From: a virus | Length of the DNA stretch: 64,000 nucleotides | UHGV virus genome: UHGV-0171999 | Strand: one strand, 5' to 3' | In this document: positions 2,226-59,186 of the stretch, piece after piece | Layout of the letters: each line of letters starts with the position of its first letter | Position numbering within the stretch: position 1 is the stretch's first letter | Made by a program: the position numbers and the translations under genes | The notes under the pieces: model-generated | The model's database searches: none | Seen by the model: the letters and a program-made list of their open reading frames with translations, nothing else | Told to the model about the DNA's origin: nothing

Positions 2226-2756
2226 ATGTCGCAAGCACTACAACAAATTTTTAACCAAGCAAATACAACTAACTTTGTAGTATCAATACCACATAGTAAT
2301 ACTACATCTGCTTTTACTTTAAATGCTCAGTCAGTTCCTATTCCAGGAATTAGGATACCTGTTACTGATACCGTGACTGGGCCATTTGGACTGGGTCGAG
2401 CACAGCGTCCAGGAGTTACATTTGAGTACGATCCACTCATCGTGAGATTTATAGTTGATGAAGAGCTTAAGTCGTGGATAGGAATGTATGAATGGATGCT
2501 AGGAACTAGTAACTATCTTACAGGCGAAAATACTGCCCCAAAAACAGGTCCTGAATACATTACGCTTTACATTTTAGATAATAGTAAAACTGAAATCGTG
2601 ATGTCAATAAATTTTTATAAGCCTTGGGTTTCTGACCTGTCTGAAGTAGAATTTAGCTACACGGAAGATTCAGACCCGGCTTTAGTATGTACAGCAACGA
2701 TTCCTTATACGTATTTTCAAGTAGAAAAAGATGGTAAAATTATAGCAGAAGTTTAA
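2226..2756 (+). CDS. 3: tail completion/sheath stabilizer gp3
   Basis: Internal ATG of ORF 2145..2756 with GAGGA Shine-Dalgarno gives 176 aa (T4 gp3 size). Confidence 0.75.
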   Translation: MSQALQQIFNQANTTNFVVSIPHSNTTSAFTLNAQSVPIPGIRIPVTDTVTGPFGLGRAQRPGVTFEYDPLIVRFIVDEELKSWIGMYEWMLGTSNYLTGENTAPKTGPEYITLYILDNSKTEIVMSINFYKPWVSDLSEVEFSYTEDSDPALVCTATIPYTYFQVEKDGKIIAEV

Positions 2757-2805
2757 TGCTTCAGTTTCATGTGTTATAATCTTAACTAAATTTGAGGAGA
2801 AACAT

Positions 2806-3518
2806 ATGAAACTAATCTTTTTAAGCGGTGTAAAGCGTAGTGGAAAAGATACCACTGCTGATTTTATTATGAATAATTATTTTGCAGTTAAATATCAACT
2901 TGCTGGTCCGATTAAAGATGCACTAGCCTATGCGTGGGGTGTATTTGCATCAAACACCGTTCATCCTTGCTTAACTCGTAAAGAGTTTGAAGGAATTGAC
3001 TATGATCGTGAAACTAATTTAAATCTGACTAAATTAGAAGTAATTACGATTATGGAACAAGCATTTTGCTATCTTAATAATAAAAGCCCAATTAAAGGTG
3101 TGTTTGTTTTTGATGACGCAGTTAATTTCGTAGCATTTAACAAGATTGCTGACGTTATAAATAATATTGAAGATCAATGGTCAGTCCGTCGTCTGATGCA
3201 AGCCCTAGGTACGGATTTGATTGTTAATAACTTCGACCGCATGTATTGGGTAAAATTATTTGCTTTAGATTATCTTGATAAATTTAACTCAGGTTATGAT
3301 TATTATATCGTTCCTGATACTCGTCAAGATCATGAAATGGATGCGGCTAGGGCGATGGGTGCTACAGTAATTCATGTAGTTCGTCCTGGTCAAAAATCCA
3401 ATGATACTCATATTACAGAAGCTGGATTGCCAATTCGTGATGGCGATTTAGTAATTACAAACGATGGTTCTCTTGAAGAACTTTTTTCTAAAATTAAAAA
3501 TACACTAAAGGTACTATA

Positions 3519-3519: not shown

Positions 3520-4216
<697 letters not shown>

Positions 4217-4838: not shown

Positions 4839-5219
4839 ATGTACAAAGTGTATGCGGATTATCAGGCTAATCCATCTGAAAAGCCAGGTTGTCAAATTGG
4901 ATGGGCTCATGATACTTTGCTTGAAGCAGTAGATGCTGCTCAAAAATTGGGATATAAATATGTAGAGATTGTTCAACCGTCAGGAAAAGTTATTACTCTT
5001 GAAGAGTTCAATAACATTAAACCAAACTTTTTACTTTTTGCAGGTGATAATTATTATCCTCGTGGTGGATATGCTGATTTAATAGCGAAAGCCGCTACCG
5101 AAGATGAACTCCGTGACATTATCAAAGAAAATGAAAACAAACCAGATTATGGTTCTAATCGCTTTGATTGGTGGCAAATTGTAAATGCCAATACGCACAC
5201 TATTGTTGATGAAGGTTGA
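4839..5219 (+). CDS. hypothetical protein
   Basis: ATG MYKVYADYQ... with AAAGGTGA Shine-Dalgarno; 126 aa. Confidence 0.55.
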   Translation: MYKVYADYQANPSEKPGCQIGWAHDTLLEAVDAAQKLGYKYVEIVQPSGKVITLEEFNNIKPNFLLFAGDNYYPRGGYADLIAKAATEDELRDIIKENENKPDYGSNRFDWWQIVNANTHTIVDEG

Positions 5220-5221
5220 TA

Positions 5222-5509
5222 ATGATTCTTTATGCGAAAGTATCGTCCGTTGAAAATGGATATAAATATGATCAAGAAGCAGCTAAAGCCTTGATTGATG
5301 ATTATGGCATTTTAACATATTTTGAAGTTGAAAAGGTTTACATTGACCGTTCATCTTCTCAAGTTAAATTAGTGAAGGAAGACCGTAAATTTAACACAGT
5401 AAATTTTGATTTCTTTATTGAAACAGAAAAAGGTCCTCTTGAATATGATATTTTCAAGAATCCTTTGGGTCTTGAATGCATCGTAAATATGTATTATCAT
5501 AAATGGTAA
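5222..5509 (+). CDS. hypothetical protein
   Basis: ATG MILYAKVSS... after GAAGG; 95 aa. Confidence 0.5.
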   Translation: MILYAKVSSVENGYKYDQEAAKALIDDYGILTYFEVEKVYIDRSSSQVKLVKEDRKFNTVNFDFFIETEKGPLEYDIFKNPLGLECIVNMYYHKW

Positions 5510-5606
5510 ATATGCTTTAAGAATTATTTGTTATTATTAACTCATATCGCACTGATTAATACCCTCTATCATCAAGGGTTCTTGCTTGAGAGCCTTTGTT
5601 AATAAT

Positions 5607-9722: not shown

Positions 9723-10159
9723 AAACACTATCAGCTGGTATTATCTTTATGACAGAAGATAAAGATTTATTTATGGGACGAGTTACTGGTTCTCGTAAAC
9801 ATGGAATGATGGCACATCGCTGGGATATTCCAAAGGGCCGCGTAGAAAATTCTGATTTAAACGCGCTAGATGCAGCACGAAGAGAATGCTTAGAAGAGAC
9901 CGGTTTTAGCAATTATAATCCAGACCTTCTAGAAGACCTAGGTGTATTTAAATATTCTAGTAATAAAGACTTACAGTTATTTTATTATACGATTCCAGTA
10001 GAGCATGAGATGTTTAGAAATTGCCATTGCGAGTCTTATTTTGAAAATAAAGATGGAGTTATGATTCCAGAGATGGATGCTTTTGCTCTTATTCCTCGTA
10101 CTCAGTGGCAATATGTGATGGGTCCTTCACTTTACCGAATAATGAACAGCCTCTTTTAA
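9719..10159 (+). CDS. nudE: Nudix hydrolase NudE (e.1)
   Basis: MKTLSAGIIFMTEDKDLFMGRVTG... and Nudix box RRECLEETG match remembered T4 NudE. Confidence 0.85.
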   Translation: MKTLSAGIIFMTEDKDLFMGRVTGSRKHGMMAHRWDIPKGRVENSDLNALDAARRECLEETGFSNYNPDLLEDLGVFKYSSNKDLQLFYYTIPVEHEMFRNCHCESYFENKDGVMIPEMDAFALIPRTQWQYVMGPSLYRIMNSLF

Positions 10160-17153: not shown

Positions 17154-17735
17154 ATGGCGAGTTTAATTTTTACTTATGCAGCAATGAATGCTGGAAAATC
17201 TGCTTCTCTTTTGACTGCCGCACATAATTATAAAGAACGTGGGATGAGTGTATTAGTTCTTAAGCCTGCTATTGATACTCGCGATTCTGTCTGTGAAGTC
17301 GTTTCTCGCATTGGAATTAAGCAGGAAGCGAATATTATTACGGATGATATGGATATTTTTGAGTTCTATAAATGGGCTGAAGCACAAAAAGATATTCATT
17401 GCGTATTTGTAGATGAAGCTCAATTTTTAAAAACTGAACAGGTGCATCAATTAAGCCGAATTGTTGATACATATAATGTTCCTGTTATGGCTTATGGTCT
17501 AAGGACTGATTTCGCTGGAAAATTATTTGAAGGTTCTAAAGAACTTTTGGCGATTGCAGATAAACTTATTGAACTGAAGGCAGTTTGTCATTGCGGCAAA
17601 AAAGCGATTATGACAGCTCGATTAATGGAAGATGGAACACCAGTTAAAGAAGGTAATCAAATCTGTATTGGTGATGAAATTTATGTTTCTTTGTGTAGAA
17701 AACATTGGAACGAATTAACTAAAAAGCTCGGTTAG
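17154..17735 (+). CDS. tk: thymidine kinase
   Basis: P-loop YAAMNAGKS, C-terminal Cys motifs; 193 aa as T4 Tk. Confidence 0.9.
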   Translation: MASLIFTYAAMNAGKSASLLTAAHNYKERGMSVLVLKPAIDTRDSVCEVVSRIGIKQEANIITDDMDIFEFYKWAEAQKDIHCVFVDEAQFLKTEQVHQLSRIVDTYNVPVMAYGLRTDFAGKLFEGSKELLAIADKLIELKAVCHCGKKAIMTARLMEDGTPVKEGNQICIGDEIYVSLCRKHWNELTKKLG

Positions 17736-17744
17736 TGCAAAAGT

Positions 17745-17752
17745 TATAAATA
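17745..17752 (+). promoter_or_regulatory. T4 late promoter TATAAATA
   Basis: Exact TATAAATA about 25 nt before ORF 17778. Confidence 0.5.
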
Positions 17753-17777
17753 GGTTTATCTAACTAAAGGGGTATAT

Positions 17778-17990
17778 ATGCTACAATTAACTGAAAAGCA
17801 ACTTCGCAATCTTACTGTTCTTCAATTAGATGAAATTCGTAGGGAAGTTGGAAATATCATTTCAGCTTTGCGTCGAGAAGTATCACTCAACCAATCTCCA
17901 GCAGACTATACTAGATTGCGAAATTTTGAAAAATACCTTGATAAAGTTAAGGCCGTGCACCGGCACAAAGTAAATACAGGACAAAAATGA
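17778..17990 (+). CDS. hypothetical protein
   Basis: 70-aa ORF with AAAGGGG Shine-Dalgarno. Confidence 0.55.
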
Positions 17991-39928: not shown

Positions 39929-41613
39929 AGAATTTTAAACTTAATAGAGTAAAATATAAAAATATAATGTCAGTTGGTCAAAATGGGATTGACATTCAAT
40001 TAGATAAGGTTCAAAAAACTCTTATTACTGGACGAAATGGCGGTGGTAAGTCTACTATGTTAGAAGCCATCACATTCGGGCTTTTTGGCAAGCCATTCCG
40101 TGATGTAAAGAAAGGTCAATTAATAAACAGCACAAATAAGAAAGAACTTTTAGTTGAACTGTGGATGGAATATGATGAGAAAAAGTACTATATCAAAAGA
40201 GGACAAAAACCAAATGTTTTCGAAATCACCGTTAACGGTACACGTCTTAATGAATCTGCCAGCAGTAAAGATTTCCAAGCAGAATTTGAACAGCTTATCG
40301 GAATGTCATATGCCAGTTTCAAACAGATCGTCGTACTCGGCACGGCTGGATATACCCCTTTTATGGGCCTATCCACTCCTGCAAGAAGAAAGCTTGTCGA
40401 AGACCTGCTCGAGGTAGGAACATTAGCTGAAATGGATAAGCTTAATAAAGCACTAATACGTGAATTAAATTCACAGAACCAAGTGCTTGATGTTAAAAAA
40501 GATAGTATTATCCAACAAATTAAAATATATAATGATAACGTTGAACGCCAGAAAAAATTAACTGGTGATAACCTTACTCGTCTACAGAATATGTATGATG
40601 ATTTGGCAAAAGAAGCCAGAACGTTAAAATCGGAAATAGAAGAAGCTAATGAAAGATTAGTTAATATTGTTTTGGATGAAGACCCGACTGATGCATTTAA
40701 TAAAATCGGTCAAGAAGCATTTTTAATTAAATCAAAAATTGACTCGTATAATAAAGTCATTAATATGTATCACGAAGGTGGATTATGTCCAACCTGTTTG
40801 TCACAATTAAGTTCCGGCGATAAAGTTGTTTCTAAAATTAAAGATAAAGTTTCTGAATGCACGCATTCGTTTGAACAGCTTTCAACACATCGTGATAATT
40901 TAAAAGTTCTTGTTGATGAATACCGAGATAATATTAAAACCCAGCAGACGTTGGCGAATGATATTCGCAATAAAAAGCAATCTCTAATCACGACGGTAGA
41001 TAAAGCTAAAAAAGTTAAAGCAGCTATAGAAAAGGCATCATCTGAGTTTATTGACCATGCTGATGAAATAGCACTGCTTCAAGAAGAACTTGATAAAATT
41101 GTTAAGACAAAAACTAATTTAGTAATGGAAAAATACCACAGAGGAATTTTGACTGACATGCTCAAAGATTCTGGTATTAAAGGTGCTATTATTAAAAAGT
41201 ACATTCCATTATTTAATAAGCAGATTAACCATTATCTTAAAATAATGGAAGCGGATTATGTGTTTACATTAGATGAAGAATTTAATGAGACAATTAAATC
41301 CCGTGGTCGTGAAGATTTTAGTTATGCTTCATTTAGTCAAGGTGAAAAAGCACGAATTGATATTGCTCTTTTATTTACTTGGCGTGATATTGCTGAAAAA
41401 GTTTCAGGTGTTAAAATAAGTTGTTTATTTCTTGATGAAGTGTATGACGGTGCATTTGATGCTGAAGGTATTAAAAATGTGGCTAAAATTTTAGATGGTT
41501 TGAAGAATACCAACTTCTTCATAATTTCGCATAAAGACCATGACCCACAGGAATATGGTCAGCACATTCAAATGGAAAAAGTTGGTAGATTTAGTTTAGC
41601 TAAGATTAGTTAG
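39925..41613 (+). CDS. 46: recombination endonuclease subunit gp46 (Rad50/SbcC-like ATPase)
   Basis: Walker A GRNGGGKST, coiled coil with CPTC hook, C-terminal FLDEVYDG; apparent GTG start; 562 aa. Confidence 0.9.
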   Translation: MKNFKLNRVKYKNIMSVGQNGIDIQLDKVQKTLITGRNGGGKSTMLEAITFGLFGKPFRDVKKGQLINSTNKKELLVELWMEYDEKKYYIKRGQKPNVFEITVNGTRLNESASSKDFQAEFEQLIGMSYASFKQIVVLGTAGYTPFMGLSTPARRKLVEDLLEVGTLAEMDKLNKALIRELNSQNQVLDVKKDSIIQQIKIYNDNVERQKKLTGDNLTRLQNMYDDLAKEARTLKSEIEEANERLVNIVLDEDPTDAFNKIGQEAFLIKSKIDSYNKVINMYHEGGLCPTCLSQLSSGDKVVSKIKDKVSECTHSFEQLSTHRDNLKVLVDEYRDNIKTQQTLANDIRNKKQSLITTVDKAKKVKAAIEKASSEFIDHADEIALLQEELDKIVKTKTNLVMEKYHRGILTDMLKDSGIKGAIIKKYIPLFNKQINHYLKIMEADYVFTLDEEFNETIKSRGREDFSYASFSQGEKARIDIALLFTWRDIAEKVSGVKISCLFLDEVYDGAFDAEGIKNVAKILDGLKNTNFFIISHKDHDPQEYGQHIQMEKVGRFSLAKIS

Positions 41614-42322
41614 GTTTATATTTACAATTATCATTATGCCATCTTGATAAATTTCCGAAAGTGGTAACTTTACCACAATGGACGCAAGTACCAGTCTTTT
41701 CAGTTTTCTTGCGTCCATTTGGATTTTTCTTGCAGAAATTTCTATGCGCTGCGATAACGCATTTCTTGCCTATCATTCCGCAGAATTCGCAGGATGTTTC
41801 TTCAAGAACGATTGCTTTAAGCCCGTTTGAGATATTATTTCTGTGTTCTTTAGACATTGGCGGTCTAACTTTAGGATTGGGGTGATTTGGGCAGTTATCA
41901 AAATGCCATCGATTCATATTCCCGCTTAATCCAGACTTACCGCAATGTGGACAAGTTAGTCTTGCTTTATTAGCTACTGCATCGGACATTTTCTTTCGTG
42001 TCTCTTGGGAGAACTCTTTATTCTTTTCTATTTCCCAGAGTTTACGACGAATCCAGCCGAAAGTTTTATTGTTGCGTTTAGCGTATTTCGTAGAAACTGT
42101 CATCATGTTAGCAGCATAGACTAATTTTGGTTCAGAAGGATAAATTTTTACTAAAAGTTGATGAGCTACATAGTGCTCTTCTGGTGTTAAATCTACTAAG
42201 TTTGAAGCATCATCGCTACCATTTAAACAGCGTGGTATAATGTGATGAGATTCAGTATAGCAATCAAGTTTTCGAGATTTAGCATTAGAGATTAACTTTT
42301 CGTAAATTAGTTTATAATTCAT
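41606..42322 (-). mobile_element. free-standing HNH homing endonuclease gene (mob-like), antisense to early genes
   Basis: HNH motif ESHHIIPRCLNGSDDASNLVDLTPEEH plus repeated CPHCG/CEFCG/CVHCG zinc-finger-like modules; convergent 8-nt overlap with gene 46. Confidence 0.75.
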
Positions 42323-55429: not shown

Positions 55430-55723
55430 ATGAAAAAATTTATCTTTGCTGCAATTTTTGCTTTATCTTCTTGCGCTGCCCAGCCTGCCATGGCAGGTTA
55501 TGACAAAGATTTATGTGAATGGTCTATGACTGCAGATCAGACTGAGGTTGAAACTCAAATTGAAGCAGATATTATGAATATCGTTGAGCGTGATCGCCCT
55601 GAAATGAAAGCTGAAGTGCAAAAACAGCTTAAATCTGGCGGGGTAATGCAGTATAATTACGTTCTGTATTGCGATAAAAACTTCAATAATAAAAATATCA
55701 TCGCTGAAGTGGTAGGTGAATAA
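55430..55723 (+). CDS. sp: periplasmic spackle protein Sp
   Basis: 97 aa with signal peptide MKKFIFAAIFALSSCAAQPAMA; size and position as T4 Sp. Confidence 0.75.
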   Translation: MKKFIFAAIFALSSCAAQPAMAGYDKDLCEWSMTADQTEVETQIEADIMNIVERDRPEMKAEVQKQLKSGGVMQYNYVLYCDKNFNNKNIIAEVVGE

Positions 55724-56517: not shown

Positions 56518-57546
56518 ATGTCATCAATACCTTGGATTGATAATGAGTTTGCATACCGTGCATTAGCTCATTTACCTAAATTCGCACAAGTAAATAATAG
56601 TTCAACTTTTAAATTACGGTTTAGATGCCCTGTTTGTGGAGATTCAAAAACCGACCAAAATAAAGCCCGTGGATGGTATTATGGTGATAATAATGAAGGA
56701 AATATTCATTGTTATAACTGTAACTATCATGCACCAATCGAAATATATTTAAAGGAGTTTGAACCTGATTTATATCGTGAGTATATCTTTGAAATAAGAA
56801 AAGAAAAAGGTAAAAGTCGTCCAGTAGAAAAACCTAAAGAACTTCCTAAACAGCCTGAGAAGAAAATAATTAAATCTCTTCCGTCATGCGTTAGATTAGA
56901 TAAATTGGCGGAAGACCACCCAATTATAAAATATGTAAAAGCTCGTTGTATTCCAAAGGATAAATGGAAATATCTTTGGTTTACAACTGAATGGCCTAAA
57001 TTAGTTAATAGTATAGCGCCAGGAACATATAAAAAGGAAATACCTGAGCCTCGTCTTGTTATTCCAATTTATAATGCTAACGGAAAAGCTGAGTCTTTTC
57101 AAGGACGTGCATTAAAGAAAGATGCTCCTCAAAAATATATCACTATCAAAGCTTATCCTGAGGCAACAAAAATCTATGGAGTCGAGCGAGTTAAAGATGG
57201 TGATGTATATGTTCTAGAAGGACCTATCGATTCACTTTTTATTGAAAACGGTATAGCTATTACGGGTGGTCAATTAGACCTAGAAATTGTTCCATTTAAA
57301 GATAGACGTGTATGGGTTTTAGATAATGAACCTCGTCACCCTGACACTATTAAACGAATGACTAAATTGGTTGATGCAGGAGAAAGGGTTATGTTTTGGG
57401 ACAAATCTCCCTGGAAATCAAAAGATGTTAATGATATGATTAGAAAGGAAGGTGCAACCCCTAAACAAATTATGGAATATATGAAAAATAATATTGCCCA
57501 GGGGTTGATGGCTAAAATGCGGCTATCTAAATATGCTAAGATTTAA
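56518..57546 (+). CDS. 61: DNA primase gp61
   Basis: Zn-binding CPVCGDSK...CYNCNYH and TOPRIM-like region; 342 aa. Confidence 0.9.
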   Translation: MSSIPWIDNEFAYRALAHLPKFAQVNNSSTFKLRFRCPVCGDSKTDQNKARGWYYGDNNEGNIHCYNCNYHAPIEIYLKEFEPDLYREYIFEIRKEKGKSRPVEKPKELPKQPEKKIIKSLPSCVRLDKLAEDHPIIKYVKARCIPKDKWKYLWFTTEWPKLVNSIAPGTYKKEIPEPRLVIPIYNANGKAESFQGRALKKDAPQKYITIKAYPEATKIYGVERVKDGDVYVLEGPIDSLFIENGIAITGGQLDLEIVPFKDRRVWVLDNEPRHPDTIKRMTKLVDAGERVMFWDKSPWKSKDVNDMIRKEGATPKQIMEYMKNNIAQGLMAKMRLSKYAKI

Positions 57547-57743
57547 ATTAACCCAACTAAAGCAAATGCTAAATCTACGAATGTATCAAGAGTAATTACT
57601 GGAATATTAACGCCATGAGCAATAGCAACTGGCGATAAAACAAAATTCCAAAGTAAAATTCCTACCATAGCAGAAATAGTAAAAGCTATACGTTTTTTAT
57701 TACCTTTGATGGCATTAACAAGTGCCATTAATTTTTGTACCAT
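57543..57743 (-). CDS. small hydrophobic membrane protein on minus strand
   Basis: 66-aa ORF with strong minus-strand Shine-Dalgarno AAGGAGGA; near-consensus late promoter upstream. Confidence 0.5.
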   Translation of the reverse strand: MVQKLMALVNAIKGNKKRIAFTISAMVGILLWNFVLSPVAIAHGVNIPVITLDTFVDLAFALVGLI

Positions 57744-57791
57744 GTGTCGTCCTCCTTTAAATTAATATTTATTGCAAATTTTACAAAATTT

Positions 57792-57821
57792 GTTTACTTT
57801 CTCAGCTTGTTATGGTATTAT
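57792..57821 (+). promoter_or_regulatory. T4 early promoter
   Basis: GTTTAC, 18-nt spacer, TGGTATTAT. Confidence 0.55.
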
Positions 57822-57846
57822 AAAATAAACTGCTGAGGATAATATA

Positions 57847-59185
<1,339 letters not shown>

Positions 59186-59186
<1 letters not shown>

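Follow-up and report, generated by a model that had tools for sequence, protein, structure and literature searches.

The question raised by this locus is whether a short open reading frame (ORF) that runs against the early genes of a T4-like phage is a genuine gene and, if so, what its product might do. The window, which is the whole stretch of 64,000 nucleotides analyzed here from the virus genome UHGV-0171999, carries primase gene 61 at 56518–57546 on the plus strand and, further along the same strand, a restriction-endonuclease-like ORF of 186 amino acids (57847–58407) that abuts dam (58407–59186). Between them, with these flanking genes as given in the initial annotation, lies the small antisense ORF of 66 amino acids that the initial annotation had claimed, occupying 57543–57743 on the minus strand with the stop codon included (ATG at 57743–57741, stop at 57545–57543) and translating to MVQKLMALVNAIKGNKKRIAFTISAMVGILLWNFVLSPVAIAHGVNIPVITLDTFVDLAFALVGLI. 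Its description as a lone minus-strand gene is fair, with three plausible minus-strand genes in the 64-kb window, the other two being located at 205–795 and 41606–42322; the region around the small ORF also contains many spurious ORFs of 30–60 amino acids. What had gone unmentioned is that the stop codons of gene 61 (plus strand) and the small ORF (minus strand) overlap convergently by four bases (57543–57546), which leaves no room for a terminator between the two genes. The same 4-nt stop overlap is found in Mosigvirus and in a distant metagenomic locus (L018). The single-sequence AlphaFold2 model of the neighboring 186-amino-acid ORF has a pLDDT of 35, too low to be of use.

The small ORF belongs to a family that is widely distributed among enterobacterial T4-like phages. 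The phrog_2024 HMM matched residues 2–66 of the product on profile positions 1–65 of 65 with an E-value of 5.6e-31, and its orthologs in phrog_2024 include RB69ORF029w, RB32ORF030w, and VR7ORF033w. The members of phrog_2024 resemble the window gene in length, in their slot between gene 56/dam and gene 61, and in antisense orientation, with no material difference, so that the window gene is another member of this family. The ortholog search proposed in the initial annotation yielded 693 phage records with the ORF intact at 46–99% protein identity (90–99% in Tequatrovirus and 46–56% in Mosigvirus and Gaprivervirus). When 1.84 billion representative proteins were searched with a profile, eight clusters only were returned; this search and a second one of the large protein collections contributed members from T4-like phages alone and no named relative; T4-like phages outside the enterobacterial groups gave no match in these large-collection profile searches. 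The distant members correspond to T4-like phages of Klebsiella, Salmonella, and Citrobacter, and an Enterobacter phage protein was joined to the family by a structural match. Distant lineages down to 22–31% identity keep the frame intact, with a length of 60–69 amino acids.

The antisense placement between gene 56/dam and primase gene 61 is kept in Tequatrovirus, Mosigvirus, and Gaprivervirus as well as in four distant lineages from metagenomes; the distant members checked (4/4) are all flanked by the gp56 dCTPase gene and the primase gene and run opposite to both. Some lineages have a hairpin or an extra gene between the small ORF and the primase gene, and Gaprivervirus has a 200-bp spacer there. 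The Spackle gene occurs in the neighborhood of every long locus examined. All records name the product "hypothetical" or "membrane protein", apart from one ortholog with the automatic UniProt name "Holin", and no record labels it as structural. Judged by comparative sequence analysis, the small ORF is a bona fide small gene of enterobacterial T4-like phages (Tevenvirinae), which is already catalogued as a hypothetical protein family and is nothing new in kind.

The substitution pattern points in the same direction. Between the window and T4, the ORF shows nine synonymous and three non-synonymous differences (dN/dS 0.09; binomial p = 2.6e-4), within Mosigvirus its dN/dS is 0.11–0.21, and the variable sites are distributed as 26/8/38 over the three codon positions (chi-square p = 7e-5), with the second position being the least variable. 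In place of the non-coding drift that the initial annotation had named as the sign against a gene, the ORF shows a coding-type pattern with dN/dS of approximately 0.1 in Tequatrovirus, and the sequence comparisons indicate that it is under purifying selection. Together with ortholog conservation, this bears out the claim of a genuine protein-coding gene.

A chance open frame in AT-rich intergenic DNA, or conservation driven by a terminator, would be the opposite explanation. It could appeal to the omission of the ORF from the canonical T4 annotation, to the many spurious frames in the region, and to a hairpin that overlaps codons 5–13 in Tequatrovirus. This hairpin (57706–57731) is followed by a T-run, and the whole element (57706–57741, plus strand), recovered by a consensus scan, resembles an intrinsic terminator of the gene 61 transcript embedded in codons 1–13 of the small ORF; the annotations of fPS-90 and SA21RB list this element as a rho-independent terminator. 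The hairpin can be folded from Tequatrovirus sequences but not from those of Mosigvirus or Gaprivervirus, where the ORF nevertheless persists, and it was rejected as the cause of ORF conservation because of this restriction to Tequatrovirus, although it may account for part of the N-terminal nucleotide conservation there. An Rfam scan gave no family at threshold, and a tRNA search found none. With the frame intact in approximately 700 genomes and in the most divergent lineages, dN/dS well under 1, and the second codon position varying least, the idea that the ORF is not a gene is extremely improbable and, on these comparative sequence data, largely refuted.

Upstream of the ATG, the two signals claimed in the initial annotation, a strong ribosome-binding site and a near-consensus late promoter, were both located. 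The Shine–Dalgarno sequence AAGGAGGA lies at 57757–57750 on the minus strand, 7 nt ahead of the ATG, and a GGAGG-type site is found at similar spacing in all orthologs. The late-promoter-like octamer AATAAATA lies at 57773–57766 on the same strand, 22 nt before the ATG, with a predicted transcription start near 57760. T4 late genes, which depend on gp55/gp33/gp45, have the consensus TATAAATA (positions −13 to −6), and the window octamer matches it at seven of eight positions, the exception being an accepted A at −13, which is present in 9 of 50 listed T4 late promoters (PMC2988020). The core ATAAATA stands unchanged 14–22 nt ahead of the ATG in every lineage examined, with flanks that are otherwise unalignable, and is kept across three different upstream arrangements within Tequatrovirus; in the window as a whole, it is approximately 2.5-fold depleted (16 observed vs. 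40.6 ± 5.8 in shuffles). The two other minus-strand genes (205–795 and 41606–42322) and soc carry TATAAATA 28–33 nt before their ATG, a distance close to that of the small gene. T4 early and middle transcripts all have one polarity (PMC2988020), and the small gene, similar to the late genes, runs against that polarity.

The small gene differs from typical late genes in two respects: the −13 base in approximately 25 loci is A, G, or C and never the consensus T, and the site is absent from the late promoters listed by a published HMM scan of RB69, so that any promoter at this position may be weak. An early (sigma-70) promoter was rejected because sigma-70 promoter-like sites on the strand of the small ORF occur only at chance level (14 found vs. 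11.3 expected). Late transcription, as read by the initial annotation, is plausible and predicted from sequence only: orientation and the conserved NATAAATA motif would fit a gp55-dependent promoter, whereas the RB69 scan placed no late promoter here.

The product has the features expected of a membrane protein. It is highly hydrophobic, as had been claimed (GRAVY 1.24), and its hydropathy profile has one hydrophobic span with KKR ahead of it. A single transmembrane (TM) helix is predicted over codons 19–42 (57618–57689, minus strand) by hydropathy and AlphaFold2, and a published TMHMM analysis independently placed a helix at residues 21–41 of RB69ORF029w with no signal peptide (PMC1524935, Additional file 2). 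The AlphaFold2 model has a mean pLDDT of 81.6 with helices at residues 2–12, 16–42, and 52–63, of which helix 16–42 reaches a pLDDT of 87–91. The helix is preceded by the basic stretch K13–R18 (57690–57707, minus strand), from which an N-in/C-out topology is predicted, and it is followed by a short hydrophobic or amphipathic C-terminal helix (codons 52–63; 57555–57590, minus strand) that would lie on the periplasmic side. Alternatively, this C-terminal helix could re-enter the membrane as a second segment, in which case the topology would be different.

Conservation is unevenly spread along this structure. The outer half of the TM helix and the residues beyond it contain the family-invariant W32, P38, and G44, the near-invariant N33, and the conserved P48, while residue 53 is acidic in all family members (D or E) and D57 is shared by close relatives. 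The mean column entropy is 1.05 for residues 32–44 and for the basic stretch vs. 1.93 for residues 19–31, and the inner half of the helix shows no such constraint. On the modeled structure and these predictions, the small protein looks like an integral membrane protein, in agreement with the membrane assignment originally made.

Homology searches connected the family with no protein of known function. Scans of the 66-amino-acid protein and its distant relatives against Pfam, NCBIfam, and PADLOC gave no meaningful match; the sole weak hit, to AaeX (E = 0.013) and far below the cut-off of that family, was put down to hydrophobic composition. Neither a profile search against PDB sequences nor Foldseek against PDB structures gave a match, and Foldseek against viral models returned family members only. 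Within the window, an HMM built from the family alignment scored Spackle (PF25676; 55430–55723) at E = 4.5, which indicates no similarity, and gave E = 0.76 for the top-scoring one among the remaining ORFs of 40 or more amino acids; with nothing below E = 1 in BLASTP, no paralogue was found. A literature search on ORF029w, ORF030w, ORF033w, T4 ribosome profiling, and unannotated genes found the gene discussed nowhere, and the fPS-90 paper contains no proteomics on its product.

Compared with holins, including T4 T, the product is likewise a small phage membrane protein. The T4 holin T has an N-in/C-out single-pass topology, and the same is predicted here, with one helix at approximately residues 19–42 providing the at least one TM domain seen in holins. 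The hydrophilic, highly charged C-terminal domain of holins has no counterpart, since the last 20 residues (PVITLDTFVDLAFALVGLI region) are hydrophobic with two acidic residues and the charge cluster is N-terminal. T4 T has a large periplasmic domain, which the small protein lacks, and neither membership of a holin family nor linkage to an endolysin or lysis cassette was found, the neighbors being primase, the restriction-endonuclease-like ORF, and dam. The "Holin" label on one ortholog was assigned automatically, and no basis for it is given. Spackle (Sp), Imm, and RI are also small T-even proteins acting at the inner membrane or periplasm, and the Spackle gene is 2 kb away. Unlike Sp and RI, which are secreted and form periplasmic domains, and unlike Imm, an early protein with two TM helices, the small protein has one predicted helix and only approximately 24 residues on the periplasmic side.

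Taken as a whole, the product is probably, though by no means certainly, a late-expressed single-pass inner-membrane protein that makes a contact in the outer leaflet during a late envelope event. The small gene would be the sole gene in its neighborhood transcribed against the early genes, most likely late in infection from a sub-consensus gp55-type promoter (NATAAATA), and it would be translated efficiently from its strong ribosome-binding site. The 66-amino-acid product would then insert into the inner membrane in a single pass, with its basic N-terminal segment in the cytoplasm and its last ~24 residues at the periplasmic face. Conservation centers on the basic stretch, W32-N33-F/Y34, P38, A42, and G44, and then on P48 and the acidic residue 53. 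With the outer half of the helix conserved and the inner half free to vary, the working part is most likely a specific helix–helix or interface contact in the outer leaflet, either through self-association or through binding of another phage or host membrane protein. The most likely arena would be a late envelope event such as lysis timing or inhibition, envelope integrity, or membrane-associated assembly. Since Pfam, NCBIfam, PADLOC, and PDB gave no match, the functional part of this explanation is drawn from sequence features only.

More specific roles can be weighed against this general one, among them the lysis timing and superinfection exclusion suggested in the initial annotation, to which no result ties the gene. 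Genetically, T4 lysis and its inhibition are already explained by t, e, rI, rIII, and the spanins, which speaks against an additional factor in lysis timing or inhibition as a modulator of the T holin, RI, or RIII, for instance through its TM helix pairing with that of T. The inferred late expression, the inner-membrane location, and the automatic "Holin" name of one ortholog would fit such a factor, and helix–helix pairing would be in keeping with the conserved polar Asn located in the helix; however, Pfam and PHROGs gave no match to a holin or antiholin family, the C-terminus is hydrophobic rather than charged, the periplasmic part of ~24 residues is too small for an RI-like globular domain, and no identified lysis gene adjoins, so that this role is doubtful. 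A late protein for envelope protection or superinfection exclusion, altering the inner membrane or its periplasmic face against secondary phages or membrane-acting defenses of the host, is unlikely in turn, even though a membrane protein with a conserved surface on the periplasmic side, in a family restricted to enterobacterial T4-like phages and with Spackle nearby in every long locus examined, is compatible with it. The T4 exclusion proteins Imm and Sp are early, while the small gene is apparently late; moreover, the family profile showed no similarity to Spackle or to other window ORFs of at least 40 amino acids, and PADLOC and other defense-related searches gave no match. The late genes of T4 are mostly structural or involved in assembly, which would suit a membrane-associated morphogenesis or virion factor acting where head assembly starts at the membrane, or serving as a small hydrophobic component of the virion or in ejection. 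Proteomics would miss such a protein, because trypsin yields only LMALVNAIK as a convenient peptide alongside a hydrophobic peptide of 48 residues. This role is likewise improbable: no record has a structural name, the gene is far from the morphogenesis clusters, and the non-enterobacterial T4-like phages, which share the structural core, gave no match in the large-collection profile searches.

The locus could also matter mainly as RNA, with the promoter serving chiefly to produce a late antisense transcript against gene 61 and the early genes upstream of it and the ORF being carried as a secondary passenger. The convergent arrangement lends itself to this, with overlapping stops, no terminator in between, and only a weak terminator-like site approximately 620 nt beyond the small ORF (56920–56907, minus strand), and for T4, several sites are known at which both strands of the DNA serve as template, at different times (PMC2988020). 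In some lineages, however, the ORF is parted from the primase gene by a hairpin or an extra gene, or in Gaprivervirus by the 200-bp spacer, so the antisense overlap with gene 61 is not conserved. What is conserved is a frame of 60–69 amino acids, under purifying selection across genera that differ at approximately half of the residues, and a strong ribosome-binding site, which makes a primarily antisense function highly unlikely.

The membrane-protein reading extends to T4 itself. T4 carries the small ORF intact at 17738–17938 of NC_000866 on the clockwise strand, in the 309-bp gap between dam and gene 61, and a candidate promoter motif, GATAAATA, is located at about 17,705–17,730 with a predicted start ~6 nt downstream. 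Both annotated T4 records examined, NC_000866.4 and MT984581.1, show this gap as empty, and T4 omics studies take their quantified features from the NC_000866.4 annotation alone, which does not include the small ORF. Its absence from the reference annotation means that it is missed by annotation-based transcriptomes, proteomes, and gene-by-gene screens: studies that count reads or peptides on annotated features only are blind to it, and a hydrophobic protein of 66 amino acids with one usable tryptic peptide is easily missed by mass spectrometry. That the T4 gene is an unannotated late membrane protein forming an unrecognized component of lysis timing or inhibition or of envelope protection is a possibility, albeit a tentative one. 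The late-stage players of T4, in lysis control and envelope events, are thought to be known, and the slot and orientation kept by this gene across enterobacterial T4-like genera, together with the polar and helix-breaking residues that stay invariant in the outer helix half, argue for a specific, selected role in the inner membrane late in infection.

The 66-aa minus-strand ORF described in the initial annotation is present at 57543-57743 and, on comparative sequence grounds, is a real gene. Its product matches phrog_2024 over its whole length (E 5.6e-31), and the proposed ortholog search found the ORF by tblastn in 693 phage records, always adjoining the primase gene. Identity to the protein is 90-99% in Tequatrovirus, T2 and the RB phages included; the Mosigvirus (RB69ORF029w) and Gaprivervirus (VR7ORF033w) proteins share 46-56%. 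A profile search of all 1.84 billion representative proteins matched only eight clusters. Four of these are remote family members, 60-68 aa long (E 1e-4 to 6e-4), and correspond to Klebsiella, Salmonella, and Citrobacter T4-like phages; all four occupy the same slot in T4-like contigs, between the gp56 dCTPase gene and a ~340-aa primase gene, on the strand opposite to their neighbors. An Enterobacter phage protein is tied to the family by a structural match.

Substitutions are of the coding type, and the non-coding drift that the initial annotation had named as evidence against a gene was not seen. The window and T4 differ by nine synonymous and three non-synonymous changes (dN/dS 0.09, binomial p 2.6e-4); dN/dS is 0.11-0.21 within Mosigvirus and 0.2-0.7 within Gaprivervirus, and variable sites within genera are distributed 26/8/38 over codon positions 1/2/3 (p 7e-5). 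Rfam and tRNA searches of the region returned nothing accounting for it. A second, paralogous copy stands in tandem in two Gaprivervirus phages, VR26 (L013) and VR25 (L014), at ~2701-2901 (+) of their comparison loci; it encodes 66 aa (MGTLFYQIWKLTSKKDKK...LWNLLVVPIAATQGVHLP...) and has the first copy on one side and the primase gene on the other. In other loci (L004, L017, L005, and L006), this paralogue is frameshifted (VR7), interrupted by an early stop (VR20), or partly deleted (SP18 and TH40); judged by these sequences, it is a duplicate at differing stages of decay. In a distant T4-like lineage (L019), the small ORF is separated from the primase gene by an additional gene encoding 124 aa (5204-5578, minus strand), for which Pfam gave no match.

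The window derives from a T4-like Tequatrovirus phage, and its 57400-58500 region, which matched 504 phage records, is 98.5% identical to Escherichia phage GEP001. On the plus strand, the early genes sp (Spackle, 55430-55723), 61.2, 61.1, and primase gene 61 (56518-57546) lie on one side of the small gene, and an early-strand 186-aa ORF (phrog_8706, 57847-58407), dam (58407-59186), and gene 56 lie on the other. Gene 61 and the small ORF are convergent with overlapping stop codons, 57543-57546 being common to both. Only three plausible minus-strand genes, the small ORF included, were found in the 64-kb window. The second is a 196-aa ORF (205-795) with TATAAATA, the T4 late consensus at -13 to -6, just upstream; the third, a 238-aa HNH-type ORF (41606-42322) with the HNH-like sequence …ESHHIIPRCLNG… and TATAAATA 33 nt upstream, probably encodes a free-standing homing endonuclease and lies amid the early genes.

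The 186-aa ORF, whose end falls on the dam start codon, weakly matches type II restriction endonucleases (PADLOC REase_II, E 8e-5; Pfam DpnII, E 0.003, below the cut-off) and contains a PD-(D/E)xK-like motif (D72...E85-x-K87). These features suggest a DpnII-like nuclease partnering the phage Dam methylase; the single-sequence AlphaFold2 model of the ORF, with a pLDDT of 35, is not usable. Of the 504 near-identical Tequatrovirus records, approximately 146-149 span 80% or more of the query containing this ORF. T4 is without it and retains a C-terminal remnant just upstream of dam (3640-3702, minus strand, of L002, the NC_000866.4 segment), so a deletion appears to have removed the gene in T4.

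The small gene is probably expressed late, as judged from its strand and upstream motifs. T4 early and middle transcripts are all of one polarity (PMC2988020), so a gene on the opposite strand is expected to be late, and sigma-70-like sites on the small-ORF strand occur at chance level only. The strong ribosome-binding site of the initial annotation is confirmed as AAGGAGGA at 57757-57750, 7 nt before the ATG. The near-consensus late promoter corresponds to AATAAATA at 57773-57766, which we read as a real but sub-consensus and possibly weak promoter. Its heptamer core, ATAAATA, is found 14-22 nt before the ATG in all lineages, followed by a GGAGG-type ribosome-binding site, despite upstream sequences that cannot be aligned between lineages. 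Within Tequatrovirus, the heptamer is kept through three different upstream arrangements: an endonuclease-like gene (window), its deletion remnant (T4), and an arrangement with a homing endonuclease or gene 56, where a divergent MotA-type middle promoter has the heptamer within its spacer. In Yersinia phage fPS-90 (L026 2439-2466, plus strand), an early-strand MotA-type middle promoter (TGCTTTA ... TATAAT) overlaps the heptamer, which lies inside its spacer, making the two promoters divergent and interleaved.

ATAAATA is depleted in the window: the two strands together carry 16 copies, whereas dinucleotide-preserving shuffles gave 40.6 +/- 5.8, which argues that the heptamer is avoided and that the remaining copies are unlikely to be idle. 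Ten of the 16 carry the full TATAAATA, and minus-strand copies without T at -13 occur at 9768, 13436, and 56145. At the small gene, position -13 is occupied by A, G, or C across ~25 loci (window 57773; L001-L025) and in no case by the consensus T, a pattern that may be due to selection favoring a weak late promoter. Of 50 listed T4 late sites, 32 show TATAAATA without mismatch and nine carry A at -13; variant sites function in vitro and, in some cases, in vivo (PMC2988020). A published HMM scan of RB69 listed no late promoter at the orthologue.

The product is probably a membrane protein, and the high hydrophobicity initially claimed is borne out by a GRAVY of 1.24. AlphaFold2, run with a 22-sequence alignment, predicted helices at 2-12, 16-42, and 52-63 (mean pLDDT 81.6). 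Hydropathy gives one membrane-spanning stretch at ~19-42 with K13-x2-KKR directly before it, and the distant members are alike; by the positive-inside rule, the N-terminus would be cytoplasmic and the last ~24 residues periplasmic. W32, P38, and G44 do not vary anywhere in the family, and N33 and P48 are almost invariant. Column entropy averages 1.05 over residues 32-44, as it does over the basic stretch, vs 1.93 for the inner helix half. The conserved surface is therefore the outer-leaflet helix half with the adjoining periplasmic turn, a pattern typical of a specific helix-helix or interface contact, not of a mere membrane anchor.

Searches of the small protein against Pfam, NCBIfam, PADLOC, PDB sequences, and PDB folds gave no match, and the family profile showed no similarity to Spackle or any other window ORF of 40 aa or more. 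Among viral models, only family members matched structurally, one with an automatic 'Holin' name; the names in its protein cluster are all 'hypothetical protein', with 'putative (trans)membrane protein' in a few records. The transmembrane segment is the only holin feature present: holins have a charged C-terminus, whereas that of the small protein is hydrophobic, and its gene is not linked to lysis genes. Lysis timing or inhibition, as initially proposed, is an improbable specific role, and exclusion or envelope protection, the other initial suggestion, and an assembly or virion factor are similarly long shots.

An antisense role of the transcript rates no higher. Convergence with overlapping stops means that late transcription would continue into gene 61 as antisense RNA, but this overlap is not universal, a spacer, hairpin, or extra gene intervening elsewhere, which speaks against a mainly antisense function. 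In Tequatrovirus, codons 5-13 coincide with an early-strand hairpin and T-run (57706-57741, plus strand), an element that two groups annotate as the rho-independent terminator after gene 61; it was not found in Mosigvirus or Gaprivervirus and was therefore rejected as the cause of small-ORF conservation. The best account would be a late, single-pass inner-membrane protein acting through outer-leaflet contact with itself or another membrane protein, most likely in a late envelope process.

The gene is ordinary in kind, a member of a catalogued family annotated in hundreds of GenBank records. RB69ORF029w was listed among 'novel' RB69 ORFs, with a TMHMM segment at 21-41 and no signal peptide (Nolan et al., 2006; PMC1524935 Additional file 2), so that the transmembrane prediction for the family was already published in 2006. 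In T4, the ORF lies at 17738-17938 (+) of NC_000866.4 (L002 3739-3939) and also in MT984581.1 (L028), within a 309-bp dam-61 gap in which both records leave it unannotated; a T4 multi-omics study quantified only NC_000866.4-annotated features. Neither the T4 nor the window protein sequence had an NCBI or UniProt accession in the protein collection examined. The point of some interest is T4's own copy, which is intact, is identical to the window protein at 63 of 66 residues, and is preceded by GATAAATA and AAGGAGG.
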